64,000 bases of DNA from a virus (IMGVR_UViG_3300032030_000026:51074-115073); one strand, 5' to 3'; counted from the first letter of the stretch, positions 6,894-64,000 are shown. The notes: generated by a model from the sequence alone, not told the origin. Numbers and translations are program-made.

Positions 6894-7610
6894 ATGAAGA
6901 AGCTGACACAATTTCTTAAAAACATAGACGAAGCATTTCAAGATGAGCTAACTGAAATTACCGGATGGCTGGGTTCTTTGGAGAATCTTTCCGATGTCTT
7001 GGATAAACTCGAAAATTCTAAAATTCTAGGCGGACGGGGTAACGACAGATTTGGAAGGGGTGATGGTGAGAATATTGATGATCATACAAAGCGATATGTA
7101 GGGATGATCCTTAAAAAACTCATGATGGATCCCGAGATTATATCATGGTATGATTCTCCATATAACAACGAAATGGAACTTTATAGTTTGTTAGCTAAAA
7201 AACTTTCTCCTCGAGAAATGACTTATTTGGAGGAGATTACCCAGGTTTTAGCTTCCGTGGAAGATTCGGATAAAGATGCGGAGATAGTCAATAACGCTGT
7301 CGTTCGTCTCATAGATGATCCGGATTTAGAGAGATGGTTTAAGAAATATTCAAAACCTATTAAGAAAACAGATAGGTTTGGTAATGTCGAAACTACGGCA
7401 GCAACTCCTAATGAATTTGAACTCAGAAAGATCATCAACAGCAAGCTTTCAGGCACAGAAAGAAAATTTTCCGAGCCTATTGCACGGAAATTTATGCGAA
7501 TATATAATGGCGAATATGATACCGATGATTATTTCTCCAGAGAAGGCGGCAGCTCGGGAATGGGTAGGTCCATGGCCGGGAGACGGAACGATAGGCGTTT
7601 TAGAATTTAA
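6894..7610 (+). CDS. hypothetical protein, candidate head-internal protein
   Basis: 238-aa ORF starting MKKLTQFLKNIDE; TATAAATA just upstream. Confidence 0.7.
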   Translation: MKKLTQFLKNIDEAFQDELTEITGWLGSLENLSDVLDKLENSKILGGRGNDRFGRGDGENIDDHTKRYVGMILKKLMMDPEIISWYDSPYNNEMELYSLLAKKLSPREMTYLEEITQVLASVEDSDKDAEIVNNAVVRLIDDPDLERWFKKYSKPIKKTDRFGNVETTAATPNEFELRKIINSKLSGTERKFSEPIARKFMRIYNGEYDTDDYFSREGGSSGMGRSMAGRRNDRRFRI

Positions 7611-7639
7611 GATAAGAATTAAATAATCAATTAAGATAT

Positions 7640-10150
7640 ATGAAAAGGTTTCACGAATATACTGAGATGATCACGGAATCTCTAATGATGTTATTAGTGT
7701 ATTCCGCTATAGTGGCTACCATGGTCCAGGATGCCAAACAAGAACGTCTCAAGTTCAAGATAGAACAAAAGCGAATGGAAAAAGAGCTTAAAGAAATGGA
7801 AGATCGTGAGGATGATGAAGAAATCCAACGCAAATTGGAAAAAGAACGTCGTAAAAGAGAACTTGCTCAAGAAAGACACGAACGTCGGGAAGAGAAGTGG
7901 AAGCGGAATATAGCCAAGTTACAGATGCTCCAAGACAGAATGGCGGAATCTCGTGAGAAAAAATTAGAAACTCAACGTTTTGCATTGGCAGCTCATAATA
8001 TGATGAATGACAAGGAAACCGTCGAAGATCGGGGCCTTATCGAGAAACATGCTAAGAATAAAGAAAAATGCACCCCCGATCAGATTCGCCGGGCCACAGA
8101 AAAAGCTAATAAAATTTCTGATGAAGAAGCCGATAAATATGTAGCTAAGTATATGCCGAAGAAAGATCTTCCCAAGACGGAACCGGAATCTCAAAAAGAA
8201 ACTCGGAAGACGTCGGCCACCAGAGACTTCAAGATACCTAAAAAACCAGATTCTGTCGGAACCGGAAAAGAAGTAGATAAAAAACCGGAACCCAAAGAAG
8301 AAGAAGTAATCAATCCGGAAACCGGCAAGAAAGAAAAACATAAAGTATATACGGGCAAACGAGGGGGCAGATATTGGATGTCTAAAAACAACAATAAAGT
8401 ATATGTCAAAGAAGACAAAGAAGAACAAGAGGTAGCTTCTCGTTGGGATATTACTAATTCACGCTTAGCATACCTGCAATGGGCCATAGATAATACTAAA
8501 GATAAAGAAAAATCTAATAAGCTCCAGGAAATGTATAATGCCTTGTATAATATAACATATGATACAGGCGGCGATATCCGGAGTTTAGATGATACTATAT
8601 CTTATATTACCCAGACTATGCAGAATAATAAAGGTTTGATCCCGGGGCTTCCTTCTAATGATCAGATAGAAGAAATTGACAAGAAAGCTGCCAGCTTTGA
8701 AGAATTGTATCCCGAGGAATATGAAAGCTATATTAAAAGATTGGAAAGCTCTAATCTGGATAAATCCAAGAAAGACAAGGAAGATCAAGCGGATAGTGTG
8801 CTGAGTCCGGCGGACACTAAAGATGATAAAGATGCTCGTGACAAGTTGGCTACCCTTACTTCTATATTCGGATTTACTAATATTATAGGCCTGGAATCCA
8901 ATCGGAAACCATCCGCGGAAGATATGAAGAAAAAATCGGAGCTGAAAAAGGATCAGAAAGATAATGCATTGCTCCAGGACACCGAGGATGACGAAACCGC
9001 TCTTAAGAAACCGGAGACTTCTGGTGAAGAAAGTTCCGATGAGTCCAGTGAAGAGTCCGGTGAAGAAAGTTCCGATGAGTCCGGTGAAGAGTCCGGTGAA
9101 GAGTCCGGTGAAGAACTGTCGGATATTGAAGAAGATATGATTATGTATGTAGTCATGATGGCCGAAGAATATCTAGATCAGTTCGAAGAGGATGAATATA
9201 ACGAAGCGGATGTGGATAAATGGCTGGATGAACAGAACCTGGAATCTGATCTTGGACTGGAAACCGACGAAGAGAAAAAAGGCTTCCGGGATGCTATGAA
9301 GCAGGAAATCAAGAATGAATTGGAATCCGAGTCCGATGAGGATAGTAAAGAGTCCAGCGAGCAAACAACCGAATCGCTTTTAGAGTTTTCTCAAAACTTC
9401 ATATTTGAATTGTTCGGTCGGAATGACGCTTTCAAGGCGGCTAAGAAAAATGCCGAAATGTTCAATAAGTATGGAGATGGTGCTTATAAGCCGGAAATCG
9501 CAGCAAAAGAACTCCAAAAGGCACGTAAGAAAAATGCAAGTGCGGTTAAGTTCAACAAAGCGGTAAATCTGCTTACCGGACCGCTGGGTGCCGCTATCAT
9601 CAACAAAAAGCAAGATAATATGAAGAGGCGCATGGCCGGAATGAAGTCTATGATTGATAGCACACCGGATCCTGACGAAAAAGAAAAGCTTCAGAAGAAT
9701 TATGATATGATGATGAAAGCTTGTGTTACCAAGAAAGGAAGATTCCGCGCCCGCCCGAAACTCAAAAACCTTTCTCCGGAAGAAATAGCCGAGTTCAAAT
9801 CCAAATATAAGGAAATCAAACAATCCAAAACAATCCGCCAAGCCGGCAAGGATTATATGATCAAACATGAAGATTTTGCCGATCAGGTACTACAAGATAA
9901 AGTATCTAAGAAAAAAGAAGAAAAAGAAATCAAGAAAGGTAATGTTGAAAAGACTTCTATGGATGACGGATCTACTCTGGTAGCCCGGAAATCGGAGAGG
10001 GATGGCCATATGATTTATACTAGAGAAAAAGGTGGCAAGACCGTGGAATATATAGATAAGGACGAATATCACAAACGCCTGGCTAACAAGAAAGAATCGA
10101 TAGAACACCACTTTGGTTCTTTCAAAGTCTTGCTAGAATCTAGAATGTAA
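7640..10150 (+). CDS. large highly charged protein with PBCV-basic-adaptor-like motif; candidate processed head protein
   Basis: 836 aa, K/E-rich, VYTGKRGGRYW..NNNKVYV motif, SGEE repeat, several (I/L)xE(S) motifs. Confidence 0.75.
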   Translation: MKRFHEYTEMITESLMMLLVYSAIVATMVQDAKQERLKFKIEQKRMEKELKEMEDREDDEEIQRKLEKERRKRELAQERHERREEKWKRNIAKLQMLQDRMAESREKKLETQRFALAAHNMMNDKETVEDRGLIEKHAKNKEKCTPDQIRRATEKANKISDEEADKYVAKYMPKKDLPKTEPESQKETRKTSATRDFKIPKKPDSVGTGKEVDKKPEPKEEEVINPETGKKEKHKVYTGKRGGRYWMSKNNNKVYVKEDKEEQEVASRWDITNSRLAYLQWAIDNTKDKEKSNKLQEMYNALYNITYDTGGDIRSLDDTISYITQTMQNNKGLIPGLPSNDQIEEIDKKAASFEELYPEEYESYIKRLESSNLDKSKKDKEDQADSVLSPADTKDDKDARDKLATLTSIFGFTNIIGLESNRKPSAEDMKKKSELKKDQKDNALLQDTEDDETALKKPETSGEESSDESSEESGEESSDESGEESGEESGEELSDIEEDMIMYVVMMAEEYLDQFEEDEYNEADVDKWLDEQNLESDLGLETDEEKKGFRDAMKQEIKNELESESDEDSKESSEQTTESLLEFSQNFIFELFGRNDAFKAAKKNAEMFNKYGDGAYKPEIAAKELQKARKKNASAVKFNKAVNLLTGPLGAAIINKKQDNMKRRMAGMKSMIDSTPDPDEKEKLQKNYDMMMKACVTKKGRFRARPKLKNLSPEEIAEFKSKYKEIKQSKTIRQAGKDYMIKHEDFADQVLQDKVSKKKEEKEIKKGNVEKTSMDDGSTLVARKSERDGHMIYTREKGGKTVEYIDKDEYHKRLANKKESIEHHFGSFKVLLESRM
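9019..9115 (+). repeat. in-frame 12-bp-unit repeat (GAGTCCGGTGAA / AGTTCCGATGAG) encoding SGEESSDE...
   Basis: direct tandem copies visible in the sequence. Confidence 0.85.
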
Positions 10151-22889: not shown

Positions 22890-22916
22890 TATTTTTCGAT
22901 CTTTTGATTTTGTGAT

Positions 22917-22946
22917 ATTATATAATCGGTTTTCAAAAAGGTTAAG
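22917..22946 (-). promoter_or_regulatory. phage early-type promoter CTTAA-N13-CGATTATATAAT
   Basis: one of four copies with identical spacing upstream of minus-strand genes. Confidence 0.7.
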
Positions 22947-22961
22947 AGGAAAAACTAACAA

Positions 22962-24060: not shown

Positions 24061-24081
24061 AATTTTTTTTTAATTACTAAT

Positions 24082-24111
24082 TATATATAATCGAGTTCTT
24101 AATCTATTAAG
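24082..24111 (-). promoter_or_regulatory. phage early-type promoter CTTAA-N13-CGATTATATA
   Basis: same motif and spacing as the 22917, 25164 and 27032 copies. Confidence 0.65.
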
Positions 24112-25140: not shown

Positions 25141-25163
25141 TATTATAAGAATTTCTTTATGAT

Positions 25164-25193
25164 ATTATATAACCGGAATTTAAAAAGGTTAAG
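25164..25193 (-). promoter_or_regulatory. phage early-type promoter CTTAA-N13-CGGTTATATAAT
   Basis: same motif and spacing as the other three copies. Confidence 0.7.
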
Positions 25194-27013: not shown

Positions 27014-27031
27014 ATTATCAAAATTTACAAT

Positions 27032-27061
27032 ATTATATAATCGCCTTTGTAAACAATTAAG
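27032..27061 (-). promoter_or_regulatory. phage early-type promoter CTTAA-N13-CGATTATATAAT
   Basis: fourth copy, immediately downstream of a terminator. Confidence 0.7.
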
Positions 27062-27063
27062 AT

Positions 27064-27088
27064 AAAAAAAAAGACCCTAGGGGTCTTT
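27064..27088 (-). terminator. intrinsic terminator
   Basis: AAAGACCC-tag-GGGTCTTT hairpin with a T-tract on the minus strand. Confidence 0.75.
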
Positions 27089-27091
27089 ATA

Positions 27092-39335: not shown

Positions 39336-39363
39336 AAAAGGACCTCACGAGGTCCTTTTTTTT
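39336..39363. terminator. bidirectional intrinsic terminator
   Basis: AAAAGGACCTC-ac-GAGGTCCTTTT between convergent genes. Confidence 0.8.
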
Positions 39364-39847
39364 ATTTTGGGAATCTTACTATTTTATGATATTTTCCCCA
39401 AGCATTTGGTGTTGGATTATATTTTTCCGATTTTTCAAATCCAAACTTCTCATATAATTTATACAGCACATCTAATGATATTTTAAACATATCATCCGGA
39501 TCTCCAACAAGAACGATATTATTATCATCCGCCCACAAAGATAATTCACTTAAAACGTACGAAGCTATTCCCCGATTACGGAGAGCCGGTTTTACTTGTA
39601 TGGATACAAGTTCTATTACCATGCTGTCAGTATGAAATAATTTTTTCTGGGAGTCATCTCGTTTAAGTATAAGTTCACTTAAGCCATATTCTTCGGATAA
39701 TTCCGGATGAAGATTATCTTCCGAATCCATGCTAATTATAAATGTTTCTAGATTTCTCGAAAAAGACTTTTCAAGTGATTTGTATAAATTTCCGGGTTTT
39801 ATTTTCACACCAGTTTTTCCTATAATAGATTCAATAATGTGCTTCAT
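39362..39847 (-). CDS. GNAT-family acetyltransferase with an MKHIIESIIG leader
   Basis: IQVKPALRNRGIASYVL (acetyl-CoA motif A) and LYKLYEKFGF. Confidence 0.8.
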   Translation of the reverse strand: MKHIIESIIGKTGVKIKPGNLYKSLEKSFSRNLETFIISMDSEDNLHPELSEEYGLSELILKRDDSQKKLFHTDSMVIELVSIQVKPALRNRGIASYVLSELSLWADDNNIVLVGDPDDMFKISLDVLYKLYEKFGFEKSEKYNPTPNAWGKYHKIVRFPK

Positions 39848-39892
39848 AATTAAATAATACTGGGTTCTTCCAAAGGATCTTTCGACTCTTTT

Positions 39893-40354
39893 TTAAAATT
39901 CATTGGCGTTGTCTAATAGATATTTAAGAGAATAATCCATATTTTGTATGATAATAGCCGGGTACTCATATTTGAGATCGTTCATAAATTCATCCCAATG
40001 ATCTTTGACGGCTTCATATGCCGCCAATGTTTCTCTATCCGGATCGTTTTTATATCTGTCATAACACTTTTGAATCCACTCTTCTTTAAGAGATGGGTCC
40101 GGGAAAACCACTATATATTCTTGATTTTTAGATTTTAAATATCTTCTTATTGCCTCATGCGACGGTACTAACACATTATATCCTTGATTCGCTAAGTCTA
40201 TAGCTACATTACAAAAAGATTCATACCATCCAATCGGCCGGATTTTCATATTATCTTCACCAACCCAAAAGCAATCGCTTCTTAAATCAATCCAACCTAT
40301 TTCTTTTAAAGAACTTTTCCCTATACAAGGAAAACCAACAACAATTTTACCCAT
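39893..40354 (-). CDS. P-loop nucleotide-kinase-like protein
   Basis: IVVGFPCIGKS Walker A. Confidence 0.7.
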   Translation of the reverse strand: MGKIVVGFPCIGKSSLKEIGWIDLRSDCFWVGEDNMKIRPIGWYESFCNVAIDLANQGYNVLVPSHEAIRRYLKSKNQEYIVVFPDPSLKEEWIQKCYDRYKNDPDRETLAAYEAVKDHWDEFMNDLKYEYPAIIIQNMDYSLKYLLDNANEF

Positions 40355-40363
40355 TTTATATAT

Positions 40364-41245
40364 TTATTTTTTAGGATCAAAAAATATAAATTTTCTTCTA
40401 TAATCGAGTCCTAATAAATTGTCAAATACATCTTTAAGTTCATTATATACAACTCCGGCCATATCATTTCCCTCGGCATTCTCCATAATGCGTGATGTAT
40501 TTATATATTCATTATTGTCCCGGTATGTCACATCCATTATAAGAGGGCTTTCAATCCATGCACCCCTTAAAAGATATCCTACCATGGTCATTTGAACTAG
40601 ATCTTCGTGTGTTAGATCTACTATGCCGGGTGCAAACGCCGGATTTTTTATAAACCTACTTCTTAATACCCTAGGATGCATCGGTGGAATAGCACCGGCC
40701 GGCATGGAATTGTATCTCACAGCACACTCGATCGGAAACGATAGAGTCCAATTTCCCACACACAATGGATCCGAATTTACCAGCTTATAATCAAGAGAAT
40801 CCGAATACCAGCAACTATAAAACATATCCGTGTTTATATCATAAGTAGAAGAAAACCTGTCGGCGGACATATAATCTATTTCGGATCCGCAAAATTTATC
40901 ACACTTATCAATATATTCTAAAGCATTCGAAAATAATATATCGTCGTGATCTAATTGTATAGTCCATTCATCGGGCTTGCATGAGATATGAGTTATAGCC
41001 TCTCTCTTTACTTCCCCTATAGAATACCCTATCATATTTTTTTCAAAGATTTTTACTTTATGGGAATCTTTTTCATATATGGGGTGGGTTTTTATAAATT
41101 CATTAAATGTTTTTTTGAAAAATGGCACTTCCGCCGCATCCAGGACTATCCATTCCCAATCCGTATACGTTTGATTCATAACAGATTCTATAACCATTTC
41201 GATGAGTGGCATTCTCTTATGTGTTGGTGTGATAATGCTTATCAT
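40364..41245 (-). CDS. GT2-family glycosyltransferase
   Basis: ISIITPTH..ESVMNQTYTDWEWIVLD..QLDHDDIL; probable start ATG 41245. Confidence 0.85.
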   Translation of the reverse strand: MISIITPTHKRMPLIEMVIESVMNQTYTDWEWIVLDAAEVPFFKKTFNEFIKTHPIYEKDSHKVKIFEKNMIGYSIGEVKREAITHISCKPDEWTIQLDHDDILFSNALEYIDKCDKFCGSEIDYMSADRFSSTYDINTDMFYSCWYSDSLDYKLVNSDPLCVGNWTLSFPIECAVRYNSMPAGAIPPMHPRVLRSRFIKNPAFAPGIVDLTHEDLVQMTMVGYLLRGAWIESPLIMDVTYRDNNEYINTSRIMENAEGNDMAGVVYNELKDVFDNLLGLDYRRKFIFFDPKK

Positions 41246-41253
41246 AAAAATTC

Positions 41254-42061
41254 TTAAAATTGTAAAAATCTTGGATTCCAATTTAATGATATACCTAAAC
41301 CAATATAAGGAGACATTTTTACGGATTTGTCCGGAAATGATACGCCATACCCGACTTGTAATCCTAAACCTAACCCAAATTGCTTCCTATTTTTATATTC
41401 ATTTTTAGGATTTGAAATGGCTATAGCCGTACCGTTATGGAAATATATCGGATAATCCGACTTAAGATCCATCCAGGTATATCCTTTTTTGTCTTTATAT
41501 ATATAACTATCAATCCAGACATCCTGATTTAAATCTATTATAGCATCACCCTCCGTCTGTAATTTGCCAGTCTCACAATTCACACCATATGGTATGGATA
41601 CATTTAAATAACGCGAAGATTTTCCAAATACGGTAGTATCGGATATTGTAAGTATTCCGGAATCGGACCATATTTCTTCTATGTACATAGTATCGTGCAC
41701 AACCTTAACGGATGCCCAGATGGTATCATGCATGCCGGCAACATATTGTAAGATAGTGATGGGTTCTTTGCCTTTTTCCAATTTCAGGCTATCCGCAAGC
41801 TCATTCATTCTTAGCTGCAAGGCCCTCATGGTGGCGGCATTTAGCCCATTTTTATCTTTGTAATTTTTCAAAGTATCGTTCATGGCTAGTATATTGTTTT
41901 CTAACCGGAACGTCTCTTTTTTATATTTTGATGCATTATCACATTGCTTGAATAACAATATGCTCAATACCAAACACATTGTAAGCAATATCCATTTAAT
42001 ATTTTTCTTAAAAAAAAAAATTTGATTTTTTTAAAAATTCTTTAATCTTCTTTGAATTCAT
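41254..42061 (-). CDS. Bacteroidota-phage-type lysis/spanin-like protein; 5' end frameshifted at an A11 tract
   Basis: N-terminal TM helix, coiled coil, C-terminal KQFGLGLGLQVGYG..PYIGLGISLN hairpin; ATG 42061 joins the frame if the tract is A10. Confidence 0.55.
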
Positions 42062-43428
42062 ATTATCAACATTTCAAAATTATACATTTTAATATATTTG
42101 TTCCGTATTTTAGACCTCCAATCTTTAGGGAGTTTATCTAACATGTCATAAAATTCTTTATATCCTTGATGAGTTCTCCGGTGATTAAAGATTTTAAGTA
42201 CTAGCGCATCTACGGAATCATCGTCTTCTAAGAAATCCAATTTATTGGGAAGAAGATATCTGTCTAAATAATGCAATAGTATAGCATAATGGCTATATAA
42301 AGAATCTCTGTTGTTGTTTTGAATCCAGCTTTTCCAATAATATTGGGCGGCGTCAGCCGGATTTGTTTTCACTAGCATGTCCGCCGTGAATTCCGGATCC
42401 GTATGAATTGGACCATAATCGGAGTTTTTTAATATACAAGAAATCAGGGTCTCCTGTGTGGTTATCAACAAGTTTGTGGTACCATCTGTTGTAGAATATG
42501 GTATATATAAATTTTCATTATCATCCATACACCATCCGGTAGTGAATTCTATACCGGGTTGCTCGAATTTAAACCCTTCGCTGGCCGTAAACGACGTAAA
42601 ATCATCATTAATAAACCCGATATGGTGCGTATATTGCAATTTTCCATCTATTCTTTCCGAATTGTGTACTATACACATATATCCGTCATTGTGTTTTATA
42701 AGCGGCGTAGATCCTCTGAAAAAAGTAGTCCCTATAGGTACGGAGCCCTCAAATCTGGATAATTTTGTATCTAGATCGCTATATTTTACCGGGACAATAT
42801 TGAAATTCCCTAAATCATTTGAAAATACACCCGTCTCTTTATATTCAGCGGAGACCATATATACAAAATCCATATCTTTCCCCGGAATAGCCATCCAGTT
42901 CTTTTCCGTACACAGGCTCCCGTAATAGTGAGTCATTCCCGGAAGGAACCCATATTTGATATAATCATCCATGTTATCATTCGGAATATAATACACCATC
43001 GCTTCCGCACAAGGATATTCATTAGTGAATTGGGTGCCGTAAATATATAAGGTATTATCCCATACGGATAGTCTAGGGTCTTCTAATCCTAGAAATATTC
43101 CTTTATCTTTATTTGGTACGGTATTGAATTTTTTTGTTTCAATATATATTGGTGTATCCGGGTCCGATATTTTAAATATTTTTGGATCTATTTTTCCTAT
43201 ACGGCATATGGAGTTATTTAAATATGATGTCATATGGTTTTCTACAAAACCCCAATCATAATGGGGATATCCTCCTATCGGAATATTAGTGGACTGTCTG
43301 ATAGATAAAACCAGCTTGCCGTTATAAAAAGCAATTCCGGCGGAACCTCCGACATATCGAGGAGTGGAATCCGTATATAAATGATAGATTTTTGCTTTTT
43401 CGCCTAATATATTTTTCAGAATTTTCAT
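42058..43428 (-). CDS. GH130/GT91-like five-bladed beta-propeller sugar enzyme with a helical C-terminus
   Basis: GLEDPRL, EKNWM, FRGSTP, Y.H, IEFTTG motifs. Confidence 0.6.
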   Translation of the reverse strand: MKILKNILGEKAKIYHLYTDSTPRYVGGSAGIAFYNGKLVLSIRQSTNIPIGGYPHYDWGFVENHMTSYLNNSICRIGKIDPKIFKISDPDTPIYIETKKFNTVPNKDKGIFLGLEDPRLSVWDNTLYIYGTQFTNEYPCAEAMVYYIPNDNMDDYIKYGFLPGMTHYYGSLCTEKNWMAIPGKDMDFVYMVSAEYKETGVFSNDLGNFNIVPVKYSDLDTKLSRFEGSVPIGTTFFRGSTPLIKHNDGYMCIVHNSERIDGKLQYTHHIGFINDDFTSFTASEGFKFEQPGIEFTTGWCMDDNENLYIPYSTTDGTTNLLITTQETLISCILKNSDYGPIHTDPEFTADMLVKTNPADAAQYYWKSWIQNNNRDSLYSHYAILLHYLDRYLLPNKLDFLEDDDSVDALVLKIFNHRRTHQGYKEFYDMLDKLPKDWRSKIRNKYIKMYNFEMLII

Positions 43429-43434
43429 AAGCTT

Positions 43435-44985
43435 TTATAAGATGCGCTCCACCTCGCTCATATTATTTACGTCGGCGGTTTCAAGCCGATCATTATCTAT
43501 ATTGTATTTTATATTATAAAAATCAACCTCCGACATATATTGGAAATTATAATCCTTATCCACATTCCGGATAGACCTCATCAGATATGATCGTGCTAAT
43601 CCCATCGCTCCTTTTTTGCAAAAATAATCAGCCGCATGCATTAATATCTCGGGATTGTCAGGGCATATTGATTCTAGTATAGAAATAACATTATATGCTT
43701 CCAGATCTCGAACCCCCCATCCTATCGATCGCAGGATGTTTAATAGATATGTGATTCTTTTTTCTATAGAAATCGGAAATTCCGAACTTCTTTCATACAT
43801 CCTCCAGTATCTGCAATATGCTTCCGCCGGATATCCATTTTCTATGCAAAATTTTGCTTCTTTTTCGGCCTTTTCAAATCCATCATAGTTGTTATAATAA
43901 ATGGATGCATTTGGTAAAAATTCCATATTTTCACCAAGATCTAATTTTCCATCTATTAGTTTGTCTATATTAGTATCCGATGTTTCTATCATATATGAAA
44001 AATTGTCTTGCAATGCGAACGGAATATAAAACCTTCCATTATTATATGCCAATCCATTAGTAAATTCTATATGGTGGTCATTAAACGAAAATGACGGAGA
44101 TATTTTAATGATATTCCAGTCTTTATCCCATATTATGAAATGATGTATATATTTAGCGACTTTTCGCTTCATTTCATTTAAATATAATTCGCAAGTATGT
44201 ACAATGGCTATGTGCGTATTGTCTTTATATGGGATGACCTGCGATGAACCGCGGAATAAAGTACCCTCTTGCCATGGTGCATTATATATGCCATCTACCC
44301 CGGATATATCATACCATTCTTTTTCCAGCACTATTTCGGCTAGCATTTTTCCACCTAGATCTTTGGGGTCTACTTTCACTATGCATACCGGGTTTGAAGT
44401 CCTCATGAAATGCCAAGGCATATCGATAATGGGCACCCAATTTTTTTCACAATAACTCTCCCAGGGTATTTCTATTTTGGTTCTAGATAATTCATCACCA
44501 TCTTCCGTAATTTCCATTATCTCCATCCTCCCCATCCCGGTAGGATTGTCATCTCGCCGGACTCCTATAGCCAGTAGTTTTTCATCCCACCTTACCAACC
44601 TAGCATCTTCCAATCCGACAAAATCCCATTGTTCCGGCTTATCGTTTTTTGTTGTATTTATGATGTTGTATTTTATATTATTCTCCGTATATTCACACAA
44701 CCAATTCCGGGTTCTGAGATGTGAATGATCATATTCCGGTATCAAATAATGAACCGGTCCCCAGGAAGACCAGAATCTGTATGGGTTTATGGAATTGTGA
44801 AGGATATAATTAACATTTCTAAGAATTAACCGGATTTTATCACCGTCCGCAAATACGGATGGGTTACAGATGCCGGGCCAGTCTAAACCGGTTATCGGAA
44901 TCCTTAATGGAGCTAAATAAGTGGTTTCCGATGATCCTAGTATATTGACTAAATTTCTATATTTCGGATAATGCAGGCTAATCAT
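43435..44985 (-). CDS. GH130/GT91-like beta-propeller sugar enzyme with TPR-like C-terminus (paralogue of the adjacent gene)
   Basis: CNPSVF, GLEDARL, CEKNWVP, FRGSSQ, IEFTNGL; probable start ATG 44985. Confidence 0.65.
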   Translation of the reverse strand: MISLHYPKYRNLVNILGSSETTYLAPLRIPITGLDWPGICNPSVFADGDKIRLILRNVNYILHNSINPYRFWSSWGPVHYLIPEYDHSHLRTRNWLCEYTENNIKYNIINTTKNDKPEQWDFVGLEDARLVRWDEKLLAIGVRRDDNPTGMGRMEIMEITEDGDELSRTKIEIPWESYCEKNWVPIIDMPWHFMRTSNPVCIVKVDPKDLGGKMLAEIVLEKEWYDISGVDGIYNAPWQEGTLFRGSSQVIPYKDNTHIAIVHTCELYLNEMKRKVAKYIHHFIIWDKDWNIIKISPSFSFNDHHIEFTNGLAYNNGRFYIPFALQDNFSYMIETSDTNIDKLIDGKLDLGENMEFLPNASIYYNNYDGFEKAEKEAKFCIENGYPAEAYCRYWRMYERSSEFPISIEKRITYLLNILRSIGWGVRDLEAYNVISILESICPDNPEILMHAADYFCKKGAMGLARSYLMRSIRNVDKDYNFQYMSEVDFYNIKYNIDNDRLETADVNNMSEVERIL

Positions 44986-45093
44986 AATACATGTGTATTT
45001 AATGAAAAATAGTTTTATCATGTACGAAATTTAGATCTCTTATACTAACTTACATTATATTATGATTATTTTTTAATCATTAAAACATATTAT

Positions 45094-46929
45094 ATGGAAA
45101 CTTATAATCCTTACGAATATAATATATTGCAAGAAAATTTACAGGAAGCCGGAGTAATTTCGGAAGCTCGTGTGCAAGATATTCCCGGAATGAATACAAC
45201 TACTAAATTCAAGCCCAAATATTCTTCTAAAGACATAGAATTTGCGGAAAAGAAGTCTAAAAAGACTATTGCTCGGTTCTTTTCTAATCTTTCTCGACTG
45301 GGAATGAATTATGATGAACAGGTTATTAAAAACATGCGGGCTATCCCGGCCGATAAAAACCTGTTGCCCGATGAAAGACAGATTACATATCAGAATCTCT
45401 TCCAACAACTTCAATCCGCCTGGAAACAAAAGGCTAATGCGGATCAGAGTTTTTATGAAAAAGATATTTCTAGCAAGCGAGAAAACCTCCGGACATTAGC
45501 TATGCAGCCGGAATTAGAAGATATATTAGATACATTTTCTAATGAAGCCATTGTATATGATTCCAACTTTGTTTATTTTGCGGAACCTTTTATTGATGAC
45601 AAAGACCTTGTGGATTATAATAAAAGTGTCCGATCAAAGATTAATGATTGTGTGTCCGCCGGATTCAAACGTTTTTATAAGATGCTTAAATGGCGAACCA
45701 AGGCGTGGGATGATTTCAAAAGATTTCTAGTAGAAGGTTGCCTGGCTTGGGAAATAGTATATGATTCTTTAGAGAAACCTACAAAAATCATAGGACTCGT
45801 GCCATTAGATCCGGCAACACTTACTAAGAAATTCGAGAATGATAAATGGTATTGGGTACAATATAAAGATGTCAAGGCTAAGGAAAGAAAATTATTGGAT
45901 TCTCAAGTAATATATATAGTATTCCAAGAAACGGAGGCTATATCGAGAACCAGTTATCTAGAGCGGTTAGTACGGCCATTTAATATTTATAGAATCATCG
46001 AACAAGCTCAGATTATATTTTGTGTCACTAATGCTCAGTACAAGATGAAATTCACGATTCCGGTGAAAGGCATGAACCGGGCATTAGGATCTCAGACATT
46101 GAATTCGGCTATGCAGAGATATCGGGAAGATATCAAATTTATATCGGAGAGCGGTGAACTGACTATTAATGGCCAGCCACAAATGCCTTTCAATAAGGAA
46201 TATTGGATGGCGGAATCGGAGAGCGGAACACCGGACATCGAGACCCTTGCCGGAGATTCCGGTCCCGATCTTTTAGATTCCGATTATCTGAAATTCTTTA
46301 GGAACCAGCTTTATAAAGTATCTAAAATCCCGTTGAATAGATTTGATGTAGATAGCGGAGAAGGCTGGTTTGGTACCGATGCCGAGTCTTATGCCCGAAA
46401 CGAAATAGACTTTGGAAGATACGTCACTAGAATGAGAAATATATTCTCACAGATTATCTTAAAGCCTATCTGGATCCAGCTATGCCTGGATATGCCCGAA
46501 ATGATGGATTCTCCGGAATTCCAAGATTGTATCCAGCTCCACTATCATTCCTATAATCTATTTGAAGAGATGATGGAAATCCAGCTCATGGATCGCCGTA
46601 TTGAATCTATCAACAATATGAAAGAACTTCAAGATATGGATATGGAAGGTAATGAAGTAACCTTCTTTGCTTCTAAGTTCTTAGTTCAGAAATACTTACA
46701 TCTTTCCGACGCAGATCTCAAACTCAATGAGAAATATAAACAAGAAGAAGTAGAGAAATTCAACTTAGCTGGCGGTGAAAGACCACAGCAACCCGGACAA
46801 TCCAGCCGTTATGGCAGTACTCCCGGTAGTTGGGAAAGCATGCTGGCTAAGATGAGCGATATGGAGCGGAGGATAGATGAAAAGCTTAAAAAGTATAAGG
46901 ACCTTATCAGTGAATCTGAAGAGTTATAG
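45094..46929 (+). CDS. portal protein (T4 gp20-like)
   Basis: PELEDILD..NEAIV, SYLERL.RPFN, EYWM, IETLAG, YLKFFRNQLYKVSKIPLNRF, RNEIDFGRYV.RMR. Confidence 0.9.
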   Translation: METYNPYEYNILQENLQEAGVISEARVQDIPGMNTTTKFKPKYSSKDIEFAEKKSKKTIARFFSNLSRLGMNYDEQVIKNMRAIPADKNLLPDERQITYQNLFQQLQSAWKQKANADQSFYEKDISSKRENLRTLAMQPELEDILDTFSNEAIVYDSNFVYFAEPFIDDKDLVDYNKSVRSKINDCVSAGFKRFYKMLKWRTKAWDDFKRFLVEGCLAWEIVYDSLEKPTKIIGLVPLDPATLTKKFENDKWYWVQYKDVKAKERKLLDSQVIYIVFQETEAISRTSYLERLVRPFNIYRIIEQAQIIFCVTNAQYKMKFTIPVKGMNRALGSQTLNSAMQRYREDIKFISESGELTINGQPQMPFNKEYWMAESESGTPDIETLAGDSGPDLLDSDYLKFFRNQLYKVSKIPLNRFDVDSGEGWFGTDAESYARNEIDFGRYVTRMRNIFSQIILKPIWIQLCLDMPEMMDSPEFQDCIQLHYHSYNLFEEMMEIQLMDRRIESINNMKELQDMDMEGNEVTFFASKFLVQKYLHLSDADLKLNEKYKQEEVEKFNLAGGERPQQPGQSSRYGSTPGSWESMLAKMSDMERRIDEKLKKYKDLISESEEL

Positions 46930-46954
46930 TATTTTAAAAAAAAAAAACTAATAT

Positions 46955-47347
46955 ATGAAAAGTTTAACGGAATCTATTAAGAATGTCAAAGAAAGAAGAA
47001 CTCCATATCAAATTGATCAAAATGATCTAAAAAAGGTGGAAAAAGTCTTGAATGATAAAAAAACCTGGAAAGAATTATCTAAATTATGCAACCTATCGGA
47101 AGAAATCACCAAGCTATATTGCACTAGCCGATTGGAAATGCTTTCAGATCCGGAGTGGTATGAAAATTTCGAAGGAGTGCGTGATCTTAATATGACTTAT
47201 GCTATTTCCGAATTAGCCGATACTGATGATGAAGACTTCCAAATAGAATTAGATGATGAAAATATTTCCGGATGGGAATGGCAAGATATTAGTAATTTGG
47301 TCACCGATGTTATGAACAGATGCCTCAAGGCTTTAAGATACTCTTAA
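46955..47347 (+). CDS. hypothetical acidic protein with an MKSLTESI leader
   Basis: 130-aa ORF between the portal gene and a terminator. Confidence 0.7.
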   Translation: MKSLTESIKNVKERRTPYQIDQNDLKKVEKVLNDKKTWKELSKLCNLSEEITKLYCTSRLEMLSDPEWYENFEGVRDLNMTYAISELADTDDEDFQIELDDENISGWEWQDISNLVTDVMNRCLKALRYS

Positions 47348-47378
47348 TAGATAGAATTCAATGTGAAAATCAACATAC

Positions 47379-47408
47379 AAAGGTCTCGCAAGAGACCTTT
47401 TATTTTTT
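47379..47408 (+). terminator. intrinsic terminator
   Basis: AAAGGTCTC-GCAA-GAGACCTTT plus T-tract. Confidence 0.75.
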
Positions 47409-47427
47409 ATATAATTATAGTGAAAAT

Positions 47428-48240
47428 ATGGAAGAAAAAATTACATTATCCCCTTATACCCCGGAATGGGAAGATGCTATAGATATGCAGTTTATGCAGT
47501 CGGTGATTGAAGAAGTCACCCAGTCCTGCTTACTTCCTAACCCTATACCACTCGCCCGTATTCCGAGAATCATCGAACAGGTAGCCAAGTGGTTCTGGCA
47601 AAATGATGACCAATCAGTAGAGCAGAGATTTTATTTGATTAAGAACACCGAGTTCTGTAAAGGAAATATGATGAACAAGATAGTGCAGCTTCCCCCTCAG
47701 ATCATGGCGGTCCAAGGCTGTTATAAAACCAATAATCTCAAATACGGCGCTATGGGAGATTTCTCGGTAGAGAGAATGATGTTAAGCACGTATTCTATGT
47801 ATGGTGGAATAGGTGCTATTGGTGGGGGTATGGGAGCTAGTGCAATCGGATATAATTTAAAGGATTATGTAGTATCTATGTATGAAGTGGATACATTTCA
47901 GCAGACTCTTCAACCCACTCTTTCTTATAACTATAATATGTTCTCTAAAAAACTTATTGTATATGGTGATCTTGGATTAAGTGATGTATTGATTGATTCT
48001 TGGAAGCGGATCCGCCTGCAAGATTTATATCAAAACTATTACTTCTTCCGTTACTGTGTATGTATGGTCAAAATGTCATTAACACAGATCTTCGGAACAT
48101 TCACTTTTAAGTATCCGGGTGGTGTGGAAATCAACTATTCCGATTTTAAAAGCGACGCTCAGGAGGAAATTGAAAAAATTGAAGAAGAAATCCGGAACCT
48201 ACATGCTAATGATTACTTCTTCCAACCAAACACATTATAA
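47428..48240 (+). CDS. neck/head-completion protein (T4 gp13-like)
   Basis: LPPQIMAV, YNYN..SKKL, F.FKYPGGVEINY....DAQEEIEKIEEEI; probable start ATG 47428. Confidence 0.7.
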   Translation: MEEKITLSPYTPEWEDAIDMQFMQSVIEEVTQSCLLPNPIPLARIPRIIEQVAKWFWQNDDQSVEQRFYLIKNTEFCKGNMMNKIVQLPPQIMAVQGCYKTNNLKYGAMGDFSVERMMLSTYSMYGGIGAIGGGMGASAIGYNLKDYVVSMYEVDTFQQTLQPTLSYNYNMFSKKLIVYGDLGLSDVLIDSWKRIRLQDLYQNYYFFRYCVCMVKMSLTQIFGTFTFKYPGGVEINYSDFKSDAQEEIEKIEEEIRNLHANDYFFQPNTL

Positions 48241-48242
48241 TC

Positions 48243-48611
48243 ATGAAACATATTTATGAATCTATAATAGGTCGGAGAGGGACATCAAATAATCCAATTA
48301 TCGAGTTGCAAGATGGAGATGTTGTAGTCCTAAGAAATAATCGTTATATGGTAGTCTATGGAGATATGATTCATGGTAAAAATACATCCACTGGCCCGGA
48401 TGAAGGTATAGCTATAAATAGTTATAATCATAATTTGATATATAAACACAAGAATAGAGGGATGGATATTATGGCTATATATAGATTTACGGACCCAGGC
48501 CCCATAGATCCGGAAGAACAATATGTCAGTTCCTATCTTAAGTCATTTGTGGCCCTCAATTTGAAAGGAAATATCCATTATGGTATGAATACTATATTTG
48601 AAAGAAAGTGA
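48243..48611 (+). CDS. ESIIGRKG-leader paralogue 1
   Basis: MKHIYESIIGRRG; GDVVVLRN..YN.NL..DIMAIYR..IFER core. Confidence 0.75.
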   Translation: MKHIYESIIGRRGTSNNPIIELQDGDVVVLRNNRYMVVYGDMIHGKNTSTGPDEGIAINSYNHNLIYKHKNRGMDIMAIYRFTDPGPIDPEEQYVSSYLKSFVALNLKGNIHYGMNTIFERK

Positions 48612-48615
48612 AACT

Positions 48616-49119
48616 ATGGCCGATCTGAAAAAATCATTATCCAAAACCTTAGGATGGGAAGGTGGTTATGCCAACGATCCTAAAGATTCCGGCGGACCTA
48701 CATGGCGAGGGGTTACCTTAAACACCTATAAGGCATACTGCCGGAAGAAAGGCAAGCCCGCACCCACCATAGAAGATCTCAAGAAGCTCACGGAAGTCGA
48801 TATCTTGGATATCGCTCGAACATTGTTCTGGAACAAGATCAAAGGAGATAATATAAAGAACCAGTCTATTGCCGATCTGGTCTTCGACTGTGTCTGGATG
48901 TCCGGACTCGGATATGTCCGGATGATACAGAAATCCTTGGGTGTATCTATGGATGGAGTATTCGGATCTCAGACACTTTCGGTATTAAATTCACAATCTT
49001 CCCCGGAGTTATTCGACAAGCTAGTACGACAAAGAAGAGCATATCTAGCCAACTGCAATGGAGCAAAATTTTATCTCAAAGGATGGCTGCGAAGATTAGA
49101 ATCTTTCCAATATAAATAA
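48616..49119 (+). CDS. endolysin, glycoside hydrolase family 108 with a peptidoglycan-binding C-terminus
   Basis: WEGGYANDPKDSGGPT..GVT, DGVFG.QTL, FYLKGWLRR. Confidence 0.9.
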   Translation: MADLKKSLSKTLGWEGGYANDPKDSGGPTWRGVTLNTYKAYCRKKGKPAPTIEDLKKLTEVDILDIARTLFWNKIKGDNIKNQSIADLVFDCVWMSGLGYVRMIQKSLGVSMDGVFGSQTLSVLNSQSSPELFDKLVRQRRAYLANCNGAKFYLKGWLRRLESFQYK

Positions 49120-49144
49120 AAAAAAGGACCACCGGTCCTTTTTT
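49118..49144. terminator. bidirectional intrinsic terminator
   Basis: AAAAAAGGACC-acc-GGTCCTTTTTT between convergent genes. Confidence 0.8.
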
Positions 49145-49535
49145 AGTCTCTCTTCCAGATCTGCTCCATATTATATTTCGGAATCATATGTTTTAGATCG
49201 CGTAAAAATTTTAATATATAACTAGTATCCCATGCGGACTGTTTAGATACTTCATTATACTTACGAGGCAATTTTCCGGTTCGATCTCTCCATACTTCCA
49301 TGATATCATAAGACTCACTCATATTATAGCACATATTTCTGTCATAAAAAGAAAGACTAAATACTTGAGTAGTATCACTATCCCAATAACTGATTATTCG
49401 TTCTTTTGAGTCATTTATAATCCCAACCCGCCAATTCCTAAGTATTAATATATCCCCCGATTCGAGATTGGATATTGAGAAGTTCGGTGTTGTCATTCCT
49501 TTCCTTCCTATTATAGATTCATGTATGTGCTTCAT
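49143..49535 (-). CDS. ESIIGRKG-leader paralogue 2
   Basis: start ATG 49535, MKHIHESIIGRKG; GDILILRN..YD.N..YDIMEVWR..IWKR. Confidence 0.75.
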   Translation of the reverse strand: MKHIHESIIGRKGMTTPNFSISNLESGDILILRNWRVGIINDSKERIISYWDSDTTQVFSLSFYDRNMCYNMSESYDIMEVWRDRTGKLPRKYNEVSKQSAWDTSYILKFLRDLKHMIPKYNMEQIWKRD

Positions 49536-49567
49536 ATTTCTAAAAAACTTCATATTTGCGATATAAC

Positions 49568-49618
49568 AAGCGATCTTATTTTAGATGTGCAGTTATGTTA
49601 GTTATATCCCGATCGCTT
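49568..49618. repeat. ~51-bp imperfect palindromic element, copy 3
   Basis: AAGCGATC...GATCGCTT; left flank is the reverse complement of the copy-2 right flank. Confidence 0.75.
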
Positions 49619-49655
49619 AAAATAAGCGCGTTTCCGGCGCAATATGCGCATGTTT

Positions 49656-50009
49656 TTATTTAGATTTCCATATAGGAGAATTATGGTTGATAAAATTTTC
49701 AATTTTTTTATAATTAGGATTACGGATGCTATTGCCGGAGCGATATATACTTACAATATCAATATCACAATCATTATATTCACCACATCTGATATCTCTA
49801 AGCATATTGTCATATGAACTTAAAAAATCATCAATATATACGTTCATAATATTGATCGAGGCTACCGCGTAATATGTAAGCATCATATCGTCTTGTAGAT
49901 ACCAACACATCCCATTCCTCATTACTAATATGTCTCCTATCCGAATATCGTCTTTTGGTGAAAATTGACTCCCTTTCCGGCCTATTATAGATTCGATAAT
50001 ATGCTTCAT
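49656..50009 (-). CDS. ESIIGRKG-leader paralogue 3
   Basis: MKHIIESIIGRKG; GDILVMRNG..YDNML..DIVSIYR..PIWK. Confidence 0.75.
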   Translation of the reverse strand: MKHIIESIIGRKGSQFSPKDDIRIGDILVMRNGMCWYLQDDMMLTYYAVASINIMNVYIDDFLSSYDNMLRDIRCGEYNDCDIDIVSIYRSGNSIRNPNYKKIENFINHNSPIWKSK

Positions 50010-50068
50010 AATATCTATTTTCTTAAAATAATTTTGAAAAATTCACCATAGAGAAAAATGTACTCGGC

Positions 50069-50197
50069 TCAATAGCCCATTTGATTTTTTTCCCTTACGG
50101 CTTTATTGCTTCTCAAATATCCGGTAGTAATTGATGCCATCATACTGGGGTTCATTTCTATAGACTCATTAATATATTTATCTAGTTTTTTCATCAT
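50069..50197 (-). CDS. 42-aa peptide with an MKKLDKYINES leader (below the ORF-track cutoff)
   Basis: ATGA-coupled to the stop of 50194..50592. Confidence 0.4.
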   Translation of the reverse strand: MMKKLDKYINESIEMNPSMMASITTGYLRSNKAVREKNQMGY

Positions 50198-50592
50198 ATT
50201 TTCATTTTATTTTTCAGATCATCCCAGAGATCTCGGAATCTTTCATAATTTGCAGTATTTAATACTCCTCTATACACTTCTACTATATCATCCTCCGGAC
50301 AATCGGGAATCCGAAGATCCATATCGTATTCTTGATGCAATCCCAAACACCAAATAGTCCCGGGCTGGCCACCTTCCGGCATAGTGTAGGCTTCAAGGTT
50401 GACTCGTTTGATTATCTGATGCTGGACTCCGGGGGAACATTGTTTATAATCCAGACATATATAGTACCAGCCGTTTCTTGTCTTTAAGACATCTAAATGT
50501 CTTAAATCTGTTATTTTGGGATTAGATAAACGTTTTCCCCTAAAATATTGCGAGCCTTTCCGGCCTATTATAGATTCTTGTAATGTTTTCAT
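50194..50592 (-). CDS. ESIIGRKG-leader paralogue 4
   Basis: MKTLQESIIGRKG; LSNPK..DL.HLDVLKTRNG..YD.DLR..DIVEVYRG. Confidence 0.75.
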   Translation of the reverse strand: MKTLQESIIGRKGSQYFRGKRLSNPKITDLRHLDVLKTRNGWYYICLDYKQCSPGVQHQIIKRVNLEAYTMPEGGQPGTIWCLGLHQEYDMDLRIPDCPEDDIVEVYRGVLNTANYERFRDLWDDLKNKMKI

Positions 50593-50594
50593 AA

Positions 50595-50942
50595 TTACTC
50601 CTTAGATTTATTTTGATTCCGAATAATCTCTCTCATCATAACCTTATCATCATTCAAAGCTTTTTCTCTATCTATAGCCTGTTTATATCCGGATTGGCAT
50701 AATTTTAATGAATCTTCCAGAACAATGATTTTTACACTTAATGAATCTATAATTGTCTTTTGAGAATATATTGTGGAATCTTTAGAAGCAATGGCCTCCG
50801 TATATTGTGCATCCTTCCACCGATCCTTAGTCTTATGAGAACAATGAGAGCATGTCTGTAAAAATATGATACACAATAGAATAATTATAACTACCTTGGA
50901 GTTATCTAATATTTTTTTAAAAAAGTTCTTAAGTTTTTCCAT
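50595..50942 (-). CDS. membrane-anchored coiled-coil protein (spanin/lipoprotein-like)
   Basis: basic N-terminus, hydrophobic helix with Cys, then coiled coil. Confidence 0.5.
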   Translation of the reverse strand: MEKLKNFFKKILDNSKVVIIILLCIIFLQTCSHCSHKTKDRWKDAQYTEAIASKDSTIYSQKTIIDSLSVKIIVLEDSLKLCQSGYKQAIDREKALNDDKVMMREIIRNQNKSKE

Positions 50943-50946
50943 AAAA

Positions 50947-51321
50947 TTAAACTATTTCTTTCATCCGTTCTTGTAAAATATTCCAAATTGTTTGAAAATC
51001 CGGATAATCTTTATTAACGAATATACCTCTATATACGGCTACTATATTATATTCTTTACCACCGGTCTTACAACGAAGATCTTGATAATAGTGGTTTAAA
51101 CCTAACCGTAATACAAGACCACCAATAATTCTATAAACATCAAATTCATTAATTCTAGCTACTCGATCCTGAAACCTATCCGGATCTATACATATATAGA
51201 TATTGCCATTTGCACACTTTACCACATCTAGGTGGTGCAAATCTTCTAGTTTAGGATTAGATAACTTATATATTGATTTAGATCCTTTCCGTCCTATTAT
51301 AGATTCTTGTATAGACTTCAT
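50947..51321 (-). CDS. ESIIGRKG-leader paralogue 5
   Basis: MKSIQESIIGRKG; LSNPK..DL.HLDVVKCANG..Y.QDLR..NIVAVYRG. Confidence 0.75.
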   Translation of the reverse strand: MKSIQESIIGRKGSKSIYKLSNPKLEDLHHLDVVKCANGNIYICIDPDRFQDRVARINEFDVYRIIGGLVLRLGLNHYYQDLRCKTGGKEYNIVAVYRGIFVNKDYPDFQTIWNILQERMKEIV

Positions 51322-51323
51322 AT

Positions 51324-52712
51324 TTATAGTATTTCTAAATCTTTAAGATGTTCATTGACACTTAAGAGTTTTTCTATAATTCCGGTATCAGAACAACCCG
51401 ATTGTGTCGGATACATCATAGAGCAAAATAGATTTATCGGCTCTTTATGATCATCATAGACATTATCGATAAATTCTATATCTCCGGAAATTATGCACTT
51501 CTCAATCAGTATAGCTTCTTCTTCCGGAAGATTATCTAAACAGTCCCCAATCCGATTGATATTATATTCCGGAGAAGCATATTTCCACCCTTCTACTAAA
51601 CATTCGAACATATCATCCCCGACTAAAGTTTCTTCGAGATTCCGATAATTGCTAGATATTAAGCTTTCACTATATATATCCAAGAGTTCTTGTAAAAGCG
51701 GGCGAGTTTTTTTATCACTCTGCAGCCATGTAATTACGGATTTAACTCTCTGTGATACGGCCGCTCCGGTAATACCATATTGTTTTGCTAGTTCTACTCC
51801 GGTCATCTTTTTATATCCGTGTAATCCAAAGTATGAATAGAATATAGAAGTGGTCTTATCCGGGAACTTCTTATCTATCATATCATAGATTTTTTCCATT
51901 TGTCCGGTATCTTGAATCTTTCCGGCGGACGGGTCTACGGTCATTCCCGGGAGTTTATCCGCCAAGTTCCCATTTTCATTATCACTATTAGTAATATCTA
52001 TACGAACAGTAGAGAAAGAACGTCCTTCTTTTTCGGCTTTTTCAAATCCATGCTGAGTGACCCGGACCGTTCTGGAATAATTGTTAATATCATTAAGGAT
52101 CTGTTGTTTGATGCGCCATCCGGCATATTGCTTGAAACTAAGTTTCTTCATTTTATCATCCTCAACATTAGAATGAGTATTTCTTTTGTAATCGTTCATG
52201 GCTTTAACCAACCCCATATTGGCCGCACTTACCAATGAATTCCAATCTAACCCACACTTGCCTCTATATTTAGCGGCAATAGATACCGCCAGTTTAGAAT
52301 ATTGCTTCACAATACGAGCTCTTCCTCTCTCGGAAGTAAGATCAAGTGTAATATCCTCTATATTTTTATCGCCGGATATTAAAGATTTTCTATCTTCATC
52401 ATTTACAAGAAGAGGAAGTATTCCTATATTAGCATCTCCAATATTATTTAGATCATTTTTCAGACTTTCAATATTACTCTGGGATATGCCGGTGTCTCGT
52501 GCTACTACTTTCAGATCGGTAGCGCTGCCATGTATAATTCTGTTTAATATACTTTCATCGGTTATATTATAATGAATTAAGAGGTTTATAACTTTCCGAA
52601 CATCATCCGGGATGTTCTTACCCAGTTTGTTTACATATTCTTCCATATCCTTGCCGGATACAACGTTAAACCTTCTATTGTTTTCTAAGATTTGTTCGGT
52701 GAATGATTTCAT
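51324..52712 (-). CDS. sigma-70-family RNA polymerase sigma factor with N- and C-terminal extensions
   Basis: region 2 (LAVSIAAKY..L.....GLVKA..FKQYAGWRIKQQI..SRTVRV) and region 4 HTH (YFGL..MT..ELAKQYGITGAAVSQ). Confidence 0.85.
   Translation of the reverse strand: MKSFTEQILENNRRFNVVSGKDMEEYVNKLGKNIPDDVRKVINLLIHYNITDESILNRIIHGSATDLKVVARDTGISQSNIESLKNDLNNIGDANIGILPLLVNDEDRKSLISGDKNIEDITLDLTSERGRARIVKQYSKLAVSIAAKYRGKCGLDWNSLVSAANMGLVKAMNDYKRNTHSNVEDDKMKKLSFKQYAGWRIKQQILNDINNYSRTVRVTQHGFEKAEKEGRSFSTVRIDITNSDNENGNLADKLPGMTVDPSAGKIQDTGQMEKIYDMIDKKFPDKTTSIFYSYFGLHGYKKMTGVELAKQYGITGAAVSQRVKSVITWLQSDKKTRPLLQELLDIYSESLISSNYRNLEETLVGDDMFECLVEGWKYASPEYNINRIGDCLDNLPEEEAILIEKCIISGDIEFIDNVYDDHKEPINLFCSMMYPTQSGCSDTGIIEKLLSVNEHLKDLEIL

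Positions 52713-61437: not shown

Positions 61438-64000
<2,563 letters not shown>

Follow-up and report, generated by a model that had tools for sequence, protein, structure and literature searches.

An N-terminal leader repeated on small, fast-evolving phage proteins as a plausible expanded variant of T4 capsid targeting

The capsid-targeting sequence (CTS) of phage T4 has been confirmed as MKTYQEFIAE (PMC8442874). In the T4 record, ipII and ipIII start with this decapeptide, ipI starts with MKTFKEF, and gp67 starts with MEGLIEAIKS. The Ip proteins of T-even phages have the leader alone in common, and they are injected inhibitors of GmrSD-type nucleases, which attack modified DNA (PMC12373910, PMC3012670). 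The T4-type cleavage motif is hydrophobic-x-Glu, with the cut placed after Glu (PMC5694885). SPN3US gp53 and gp54 and the inner-body proteins of phiKZ are paralogous head proteins with an identical N-terminal propeptide, whose protease motif is also cut after Glu (PMC5694885). Here we analysed a 64,000-nt stretch of DNA from an uncultured giant T4-type phage (IMGVR_UViG_3300032030_000026:51074-115073; hereafter the window), in which six open reading frames (ORFs) begin with the pattern M-K-[H/T/S]-[I/L]-x-E-S-I-I-G-[R/K]. We call this leader the tag. Its sequence, its cargo and the neighbouring head genes suggest that a greatly expanded variant of T4 capsid targeting, with an unexplained constraint at the nucleotide level, is the best class for it and a plausible one.

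The window makes up the right-hand 64 kb of a single viral contig of 115,073 bp (G000; 38% G+C, CheckV completeness 57%). Window coordinates refer to the 64-kb stretch, and genome coordinates refer to the whole 115,073-bp contig. The original prediction held that six window ORFs, starting at 39847(-), 48243(+), 49535(-), 50009(-), 50592(-) and 51321(-), have a leader in common, and all six were recovered at these positions. The tagged genes and a 14-nt block within their tags are as follows (window coordinates).

39362-39847, minus strand: tagged GNAT-like gene, 161 amino acids (aa), MKHIIESIIGKTG followed by a GNAT-like acetyltransferase
48243-48611, plus strand: tagged gene A, 122 aa, tag and a small beta-barrel domain of the form GDIV..RNG..DIVxVYR
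49143-49535, minus strand: tagged gene B, 130 aa, same domain superfamily as gene A
49656-50009, minus strand: tagged gene C, 117 aa, same superfamily as gene A
50194-50592, minus strand: tagged gene D, 132 aa, with MKTLQESIIGRKG, the variant nearest the T4 CTS
50947-51321, minus strand: tagged gene E, 124 aa, for which an AlphaFold model was made
48258-48271, plus strand: frozen 14-nt block GAATCTATAATAGG, tag codons 6-10 of gene A
39819-39832, 49507-49520, 49981-49994, 50564-50577 and 51293-51306, minus strand: the same 14-nt block

For gene B, an alternative upstream ATG is present at 49553; the tag itself begins at 49535. A six-frame scan of the whole contig yielded 24 matches to ES[IVL][IVL]G, and 21 of the 24 were located five residues past an ATG that heads an ORF. 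The 21 tagged ORFs encode 106-161 aa and amount to about one protein gene in six; nine are located at 9.5-13.1 kb, one at 16.6 kb, six at 28.3-30.8 kb and six in the window. Chance was excluded because the tag pentapeptide was almost never found elsewhere in the six frames of the contig. Pattern scans of IMG/VR and the JGI metagenomes showed that the tag is confined to a small set of contigs, and pooling over these relatives gave 160 unique tagged proteins (median, 134 aa). The feature is thus confirmed as real, and it is larger than first described.

Megablast found no GenBank phage match for the region. Among the relatives, contig G001 (110 kb) is syntenic with G000 at ~77% nucleotide identity, with a portal protein that is 97% identical. 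The tag also recurs many times in G002 (130 kb) and G003 (55 kb), which have almost no genes in common with G000. All four contigs are fragments. The simplest reading would be that G000/G001 and G002/G003 represent complementary parts of one ~240 kb genome; if G002 and G000 each represent one half of a single genome type, the near-absence of common genes is what one would expect.

We compared the tag with the T4 record and with the published CTS, and the resemblance noted in the original prediction held. The common tag variant MKTLQESIIG shares 6 of its 10 residues, and 20 of its first 24 nucleotides, with the T4 CTS, and the pattern M-x-x-[LIYF]-x-E-[SAF]-I fits the tag, the T4 CTS, ipI and gp67. 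All 160 tags have E at position 6, and 159 of them have I or L at position 4; therefore, a T4-type cleavage motif is present at residues 4-6. Head genes and related leader variants are found close to the tagged genes in the window.

45094-46929, plus strand: gp20-type portal; 1325 phage records match, the best being Sphingomonas phage PAU (36%) and Lak megaphages
46955-47347, plus strand: gp67-like protein, 130 aa, directly after the portal, starting MKSLTESIKN, a single-copy leader variant
47320-48240, plus strand: head-tail adaptor-like protein (phrog_211, 2e-13)
48616-49119, plus strand: GH108 endolysin, between tagged genes and inside a segment that is inverted in G001
51324-52712, minus strand: sigma-70-like protein; its start, MKSFTEQIL, is a leader variant that lacks the frozen codons

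Besides the gp20-type portal, the head genes of G000 include a T4-type large terminase. The 130-aa gp67-like gene resembles that of the T4 core protein gp67, which follows portal gene 20, in its position and in an L-x-E-[S/A]-I-K motif; it differs in having no detectable similarity past the N-terminus and in its length (80 aa in T4). A gp21-type prohead protease was found in G002 and G003 (Peptidase_S77 44-45 bits against a cut-off of 27; phrog_207 8.8e-45), and both contigs also carry a gp23-type major capsid protein (Gp23, 73 bits). Directly upstream of the G002 protease gene are one tagged gene and one gene with a variant leader (MKTITESILD). The G002 protease (L007:2279-3694) has a long C-terminal region with five tandem KWIVEEYSPEIE repeats, each with an I-V-E site, and this region may serve as a built-in scaffold or docking region. 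The protease and sheath genes are each preceded, at a distance of 13-14 nt, by the T4 late-promoter octamer TATAAATA. The same octamer also occurs twice among the tagged genes of the window, at 48413-48420(+), within gene A and 196 nt upstream of the endolysin gene, and at 51321-51328(-), where it overlaps the start codon of gene E. An alternative genetic code in the late genes was considered and rejected; table 11 gives uninterrupted reading frames for the head and tail genes.

The tagged genes are like the T4 CTS/Ip system in several respects. A short N-terminal leader is common to otherwise unrelated small proteins; it starts with MKT-hydrophobic-x-E and has the I/L-x-E protease motif; it occurs together with what appears to be a T4-type head module; the cargo is hypervariable; and tagged genes stand beside an endolysin gene, as T4 ipIII stands beside gene e. 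The leader differs from that of T4 in having 13 residues. The likeness to the SPN3US and phiKZ proteins is in the paralogy, the propeptide and the cleavage after Glu; those proteins differ in being few and large, in their A/S-x-E motif, in their S80-family protease and in having been found in virions by mass spectrometry.

To describe the cargo, we grouped the 160 unique tagged proteins and obtained 39-46 groups without BLAST similarity to one another. Pfam searches on 83 tagged proteins gave almost no matches. Five of the six window genes have one divergent domain, GD[IV][VL]..RNG ... Y[DN].[ND]L ... DI[VIM].[VI][YW]R, as the original prediction had proposed. The AlphaFold model of gene E (mean predicted local distance difference test score, pLDDT, 82.8) is a small beta-barrel with a C-terminal helix. 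Residues 1-3 and 6-14 of this model had a pLDDT below 50, and the tag is therefore outside the predicted fold. The fold of this main cargo domain had no significant match in PDB or BFVD, and Pfam gave no match for larger proteins containing it. A profile of the domain matched 426 representative proteins among 1.84 billion, many of them tagged. In untagged homologues the domain starts at residue 2-6 (P0152, P0153, P0109), at times in tandem copies. Other homologues carry a different leader of ~25 residues, MKILNxxNYISERxKI..., with an I-x-E (I-S-E) motif (P0107, P0136, P0163); a look at the context of this alternative leader yielded no relative in IMG/VR.

Cargo outside this superfamily comprises the GNAT-like protein, a WPNPY family, an IPG family and a DUF6445 protein. 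The GNAT-like protein at 39362-39847 scored 24.2 bits with Pfam Acetyltransf_7, under the 27-bit cut-off. Its AlphaFold model (pLDDT 83.4) has the tag as a short helix at residues 4-9 (pLDDT ~62), and the top Foldseek matches of the model were all GNAT enzymes (Naa50, SpeG-like, NatD; probability 0.99-1.0, TM 0.4-0.5). The acetyl-CoA motif R/Q-x-x-G-x-G/A is present as RNRGIA, and the orthologues P0171 and P0174 carry PF13508 and PF00583. The fold matches and this motif agree with the earlier assignment of the sixth ORF to an unrelated GNAT domain. The GNAT orthologues begin with the full tag, with a version that is seven residues shorter (MKHIIESI-GK) or with MKSIYSYIYEN. The unrelated cargo, the predicted disorder or short helix outside the fold, and the homologues that are untagged or have another leader all agree with the modularity of the tag in the original prediction. 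Structure prediction and homologues also indicated that the leader is not integral to the fold, that is, that it is separable from its cargo.

Orthologous tagged proteins of G000 and G001 are only 48-73% identical, whereas their untagged neighbours are 83-97% identical, a divergence that fits arms-race cargo. Gene A has an orthologue that is 73% identical and lies within the inverted segment of G001; that of gene C is 71% identical, and that of gene B only 48%. The tagged genes are also found together with a set of preQ0 genes at genome 25903-33298 (L151), which encodes QueD/PTPS, QueC, a QueE-like radical-SAM protein and FolE2 and has six tagged genes in its middle. The set implies 7-deazaguanine modification of DNA.

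We favour, with slightly better than even confidence, the explanation that the tag is a head-loading leader of the T4 capsid-targeting type on fast-evolving injected proteins, and that the system is probably a much enlarged version of T4 head loading. Residues 1-9 would form a short amphipathic element that docks the protein onto the scaffolding core of a T4-like prohead. The gp21-type prohead protease would then cut after Glu6, at I/L-x-E|S. The small cargo (~134 aa, with at least one enzyme) would be kept in the head and would enter the cell with the DNA. There it may act as a fast-evolving arsenal, probably for anti-defence or takeover; the preQ0 (7-deazaguanine) pathway is encoded by the same phage. 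All steps of this scheme, namely docking, cleavage, packaging and injection, are inferred, as is cargo function.

Several points weigh against capsid targeting. Neither a protease gene nor a capsid gene was found on G000 or G001, both of which are fragments; we infer that the protease and capsid of G002/G003 belong with the G000 lineage. The presumed genome would have ~50-60 tagged genes (21 copies on G000), whereas T-even phages have one to four leader copies each. Cleavage after Glu6 would strip only six residues, so that the mature protein keeps the conserved SIIGRKG, unlike in T4, where the cut comes after residue 10. Several tagged arrays are located among non-structural genes, for example within the preQ0 operon, and canonical late promoters were found upstream of some tagged arrays only. 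The cargo has a mixed isoelectric point (median 7.6) and is not uniformly basic. Finally, the core codons of the tag are frozen here, and this freeze is not explained by a peptide signal alone.

The strongest alternative is that the tag is the N-terminal module of a diversifying paralogue family with a role in the cytoplasm, such as a partner-binding peptide, a turnover degron or the site of a modifying enzyme, and has no link to the capsid. Most tagged proteins do belong to one divergent domain superfamily of uniform size, the arrays resemble tandem-duplicated blocks of accessory genes, and the packaging of ~50 different proteins in one head would be unprecedented. However, unrelated cargo (the GNAT, WPNPY, IPG and DUF6445 proteins) is tagged as well, the tag resembles the T4 CTS and the gp67 N-termini down to the I/L-x-E motif, and leader variants adjoin the portal and protease genes. 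We regard a cytoplasmic module as unlikely. A leader of the radical-SAM/SPASM-linked (RiPP-like) type was rejected; the sole radical-SAM protein nearby is the 158-aa QueE-like protein of the QueD-QueC-FolE2 set.

The original prediction had missed the nucleotide freeze of codons 6-9. In the 160 tags, these codons were GAA (156), TCT (147), ATA (156) and ATA (151). When one tag was taken per cargo group (n = 39), GAA was used in 38, TCT in 37, and ATA in 38 and 37, respectively; the use of TCT in 37 of 39 groups, compared with 27.5% in the genome, corresponds to P ~7e-19. Synonymous variation was found around the block: I/L4 is encoded by eight codons, Gly10 by all four and R/K11 by seven, and Gly13 varies freely too. 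Codon bias at gene starts was rejected as the cause, as codons 2-15 of untagged genes use ATA at 51%, TCT at 21% and GAA at 77%. The single-copy ESI leader variants are not frozen; in the gp67-like gene, the sigma factor gene and the genes adjoining the protease, Ser is encoded by TCT, TCC or AGT, and Ile by ATT, ATC or ATA. The 14-mer GAATCTATAATAGG was not found outside tags on either strand, and a free-standing DNA or RNA element or an antisense-RNA target was rejected because the 14-mer and its complement occur in tags only. Together with the subtype and breakpoint patterns described below, the freeze suggests that cassettes are exchanged by crossover at the block, or else that a further signal, in RNA or DNA, resides there.

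These codon counts bear on a second alternative, in which conservation acts mainly at the nucleic-acid level: the block would act in cis as an RNA or DNA signal, for example the site of a translational regulator or a nuclease, or an internal promoter, and the peptide would be largely a by-product. The codons frozen across cargo groups amid synonymous variation at Gly10, Arg/Lys11 and Gly13, the failure of N-terminal codon bias in untagged genes to account for them, the unfrozen single-copy leaders and a TATAAT within the block all speak for such a signal. However, the conservation of the flanking I/L4 and R/K11 through differing codons indicates selection on the peptide, and the restriction of the 14-mer to tags, each followed by a reading frame that always runs on for more than 100 codons, also argues against it. 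A late promoter in the block was rejected, as no -35 element is present at a usable spacing and the lineage uses TATAAATA. We consider a signal of this kind as the main cause to be distinctly improbable.

To examine cassette exchange, we compared the tags between neighbouring genes and between orthologues. Residues 3-4 of the tag fall into three discrete subtypes, HI (67), TL (51) and SI (31); TI was found four times and HL never. Neighbouring tagged genes with unrelated cargo had the same subtype in 47 of 78 pairs, compared with 31% expected (permutation p <0.0005), and orthologous cargo (at least 60% identity) had the same subtype in only 30 of 48 pairs. Gene C, for instance, has MKHII in G000 and MKTLS in G001. 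Thus, tag subtype tracks genomic position as much as it tracks cargo. Tandem duplication followed by fast divergence of the cargo could be another explanation for the subtype that neighbours have in common.

Comparison of G000 with G001 located rearrangement breakpoints at the tags, with nucleotide homology beginning or ending within the tag; for gene C, it begins exactly at the frozen block. The two contigs have the segment bounded by the gene A and gene C tags in opposite orientations, and additional tagged genes are inserted in G001. The 3' end of the adaptor gene and the tag that follows form a conserved 'slot', in which the cargo differs between G000 and G001. In G001, the region directly after the portal (93601-94789; L002 ~7250-8440) has two additions that G000 lacks, namely a further tagged gene (MKSLTESIIGRRS...) and a partial second copy of the adaptor-like gene. 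PeSL cassettes of T4-type phages are alike in that swaps between close relatives have their breakpoints at short conserved nucleotide motifs located at gene boundaries (PMC2839356, PMC4122927); they differ in being intergenic promoter and stem-loop elements, whereas the block described here is inside the coding sequence of the tag.

The proposal that the tags are crossover sites of an invertase or shufflon-type system that reassorts cargo behind a constant N-terminus (cf. Mu Gin, R64 shufflon) is hardly credible: the segment between the two inverted tags and a short palindrome in the block (CTAT-A-ATAG) speak for it, but each arm of the palindrome has just 4 bp, searches of G000-G003, all of them fragments, found no serine or tyrosine recombinase (PF00239, PF00589), and inversion is unneeded for expression because each cassette has its own start codon and full tag. 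Returning to the capsid-targeting explanation, a tentative extension, possible rather than probable, is that the tag is a dual junction. The peptide would address whatever protein follows it to the capsid for injection, and the 14-nt block, as the site of crossover, would let cargo swap, invert and amplify behind fixed slots, yielding a self-renewing library of more than 50 capsid-delivered effectors.

Other features of the contig were noted as well. One remnant ORF lies among the tagged genes of the window.

50069-50197, minus strand: remnant ORF, 42 aa (MMKKLDKYINESIE...), a truncated form of a membrane-like protein whose intact version is encoded in G001 (158 aa, MKNLGSYINESIEIG...; L005:1543-2019)

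An IF-1 homologue (PF01176, 4.9e-26) is encoded at genome 31361-31588 (L151:5862-6089), between a tagged array and the QueE-like and FolE2 genes. The motif CGATTATATAATATCA was found upstream of clusters of small genes at window ~22890-22960, 24061-24106, 25141-25188 and 27014-27091 (-), and at genome 44640-45786; it looks like a phage promoter class separate from the TATAAATA late motif. ARAGORN called 38 tRNA genes at genome 34996-44351, including tRNA-Ile(UAU), two tRNA-Glu(UUC) and tRNA-Arg(CCG); none of these 38 was a tRNA-Ser gene. At the contig end (window ~62000-64000), long collagen-like Gly-X-Gln triplet repeats (G-I-Q-G-L-Q-G-V-Q...) are present, in which simple ORF calling yields spurious small ORFs.

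If the tag loads proteins into the head, the set of proteins delivered by virions of this lineage would far exceed any other known, and injected effectors of uncultured giant phages could be recognised by a simple sequence rule. Such a finding would also point directly to hundreds of candidate anti-defence proteins of unknown fold, and provide a natural short tag for putting foreign proteins into capsids of non-coli phages. The frozen block and the slot behaviour bear on how phages diversify accessory genes via recombination at motifs within coding sequences. A library of more than 50 effectors, if true, would be comparable to the repertoires of bacterial secretion systems, but in the head of a virus.

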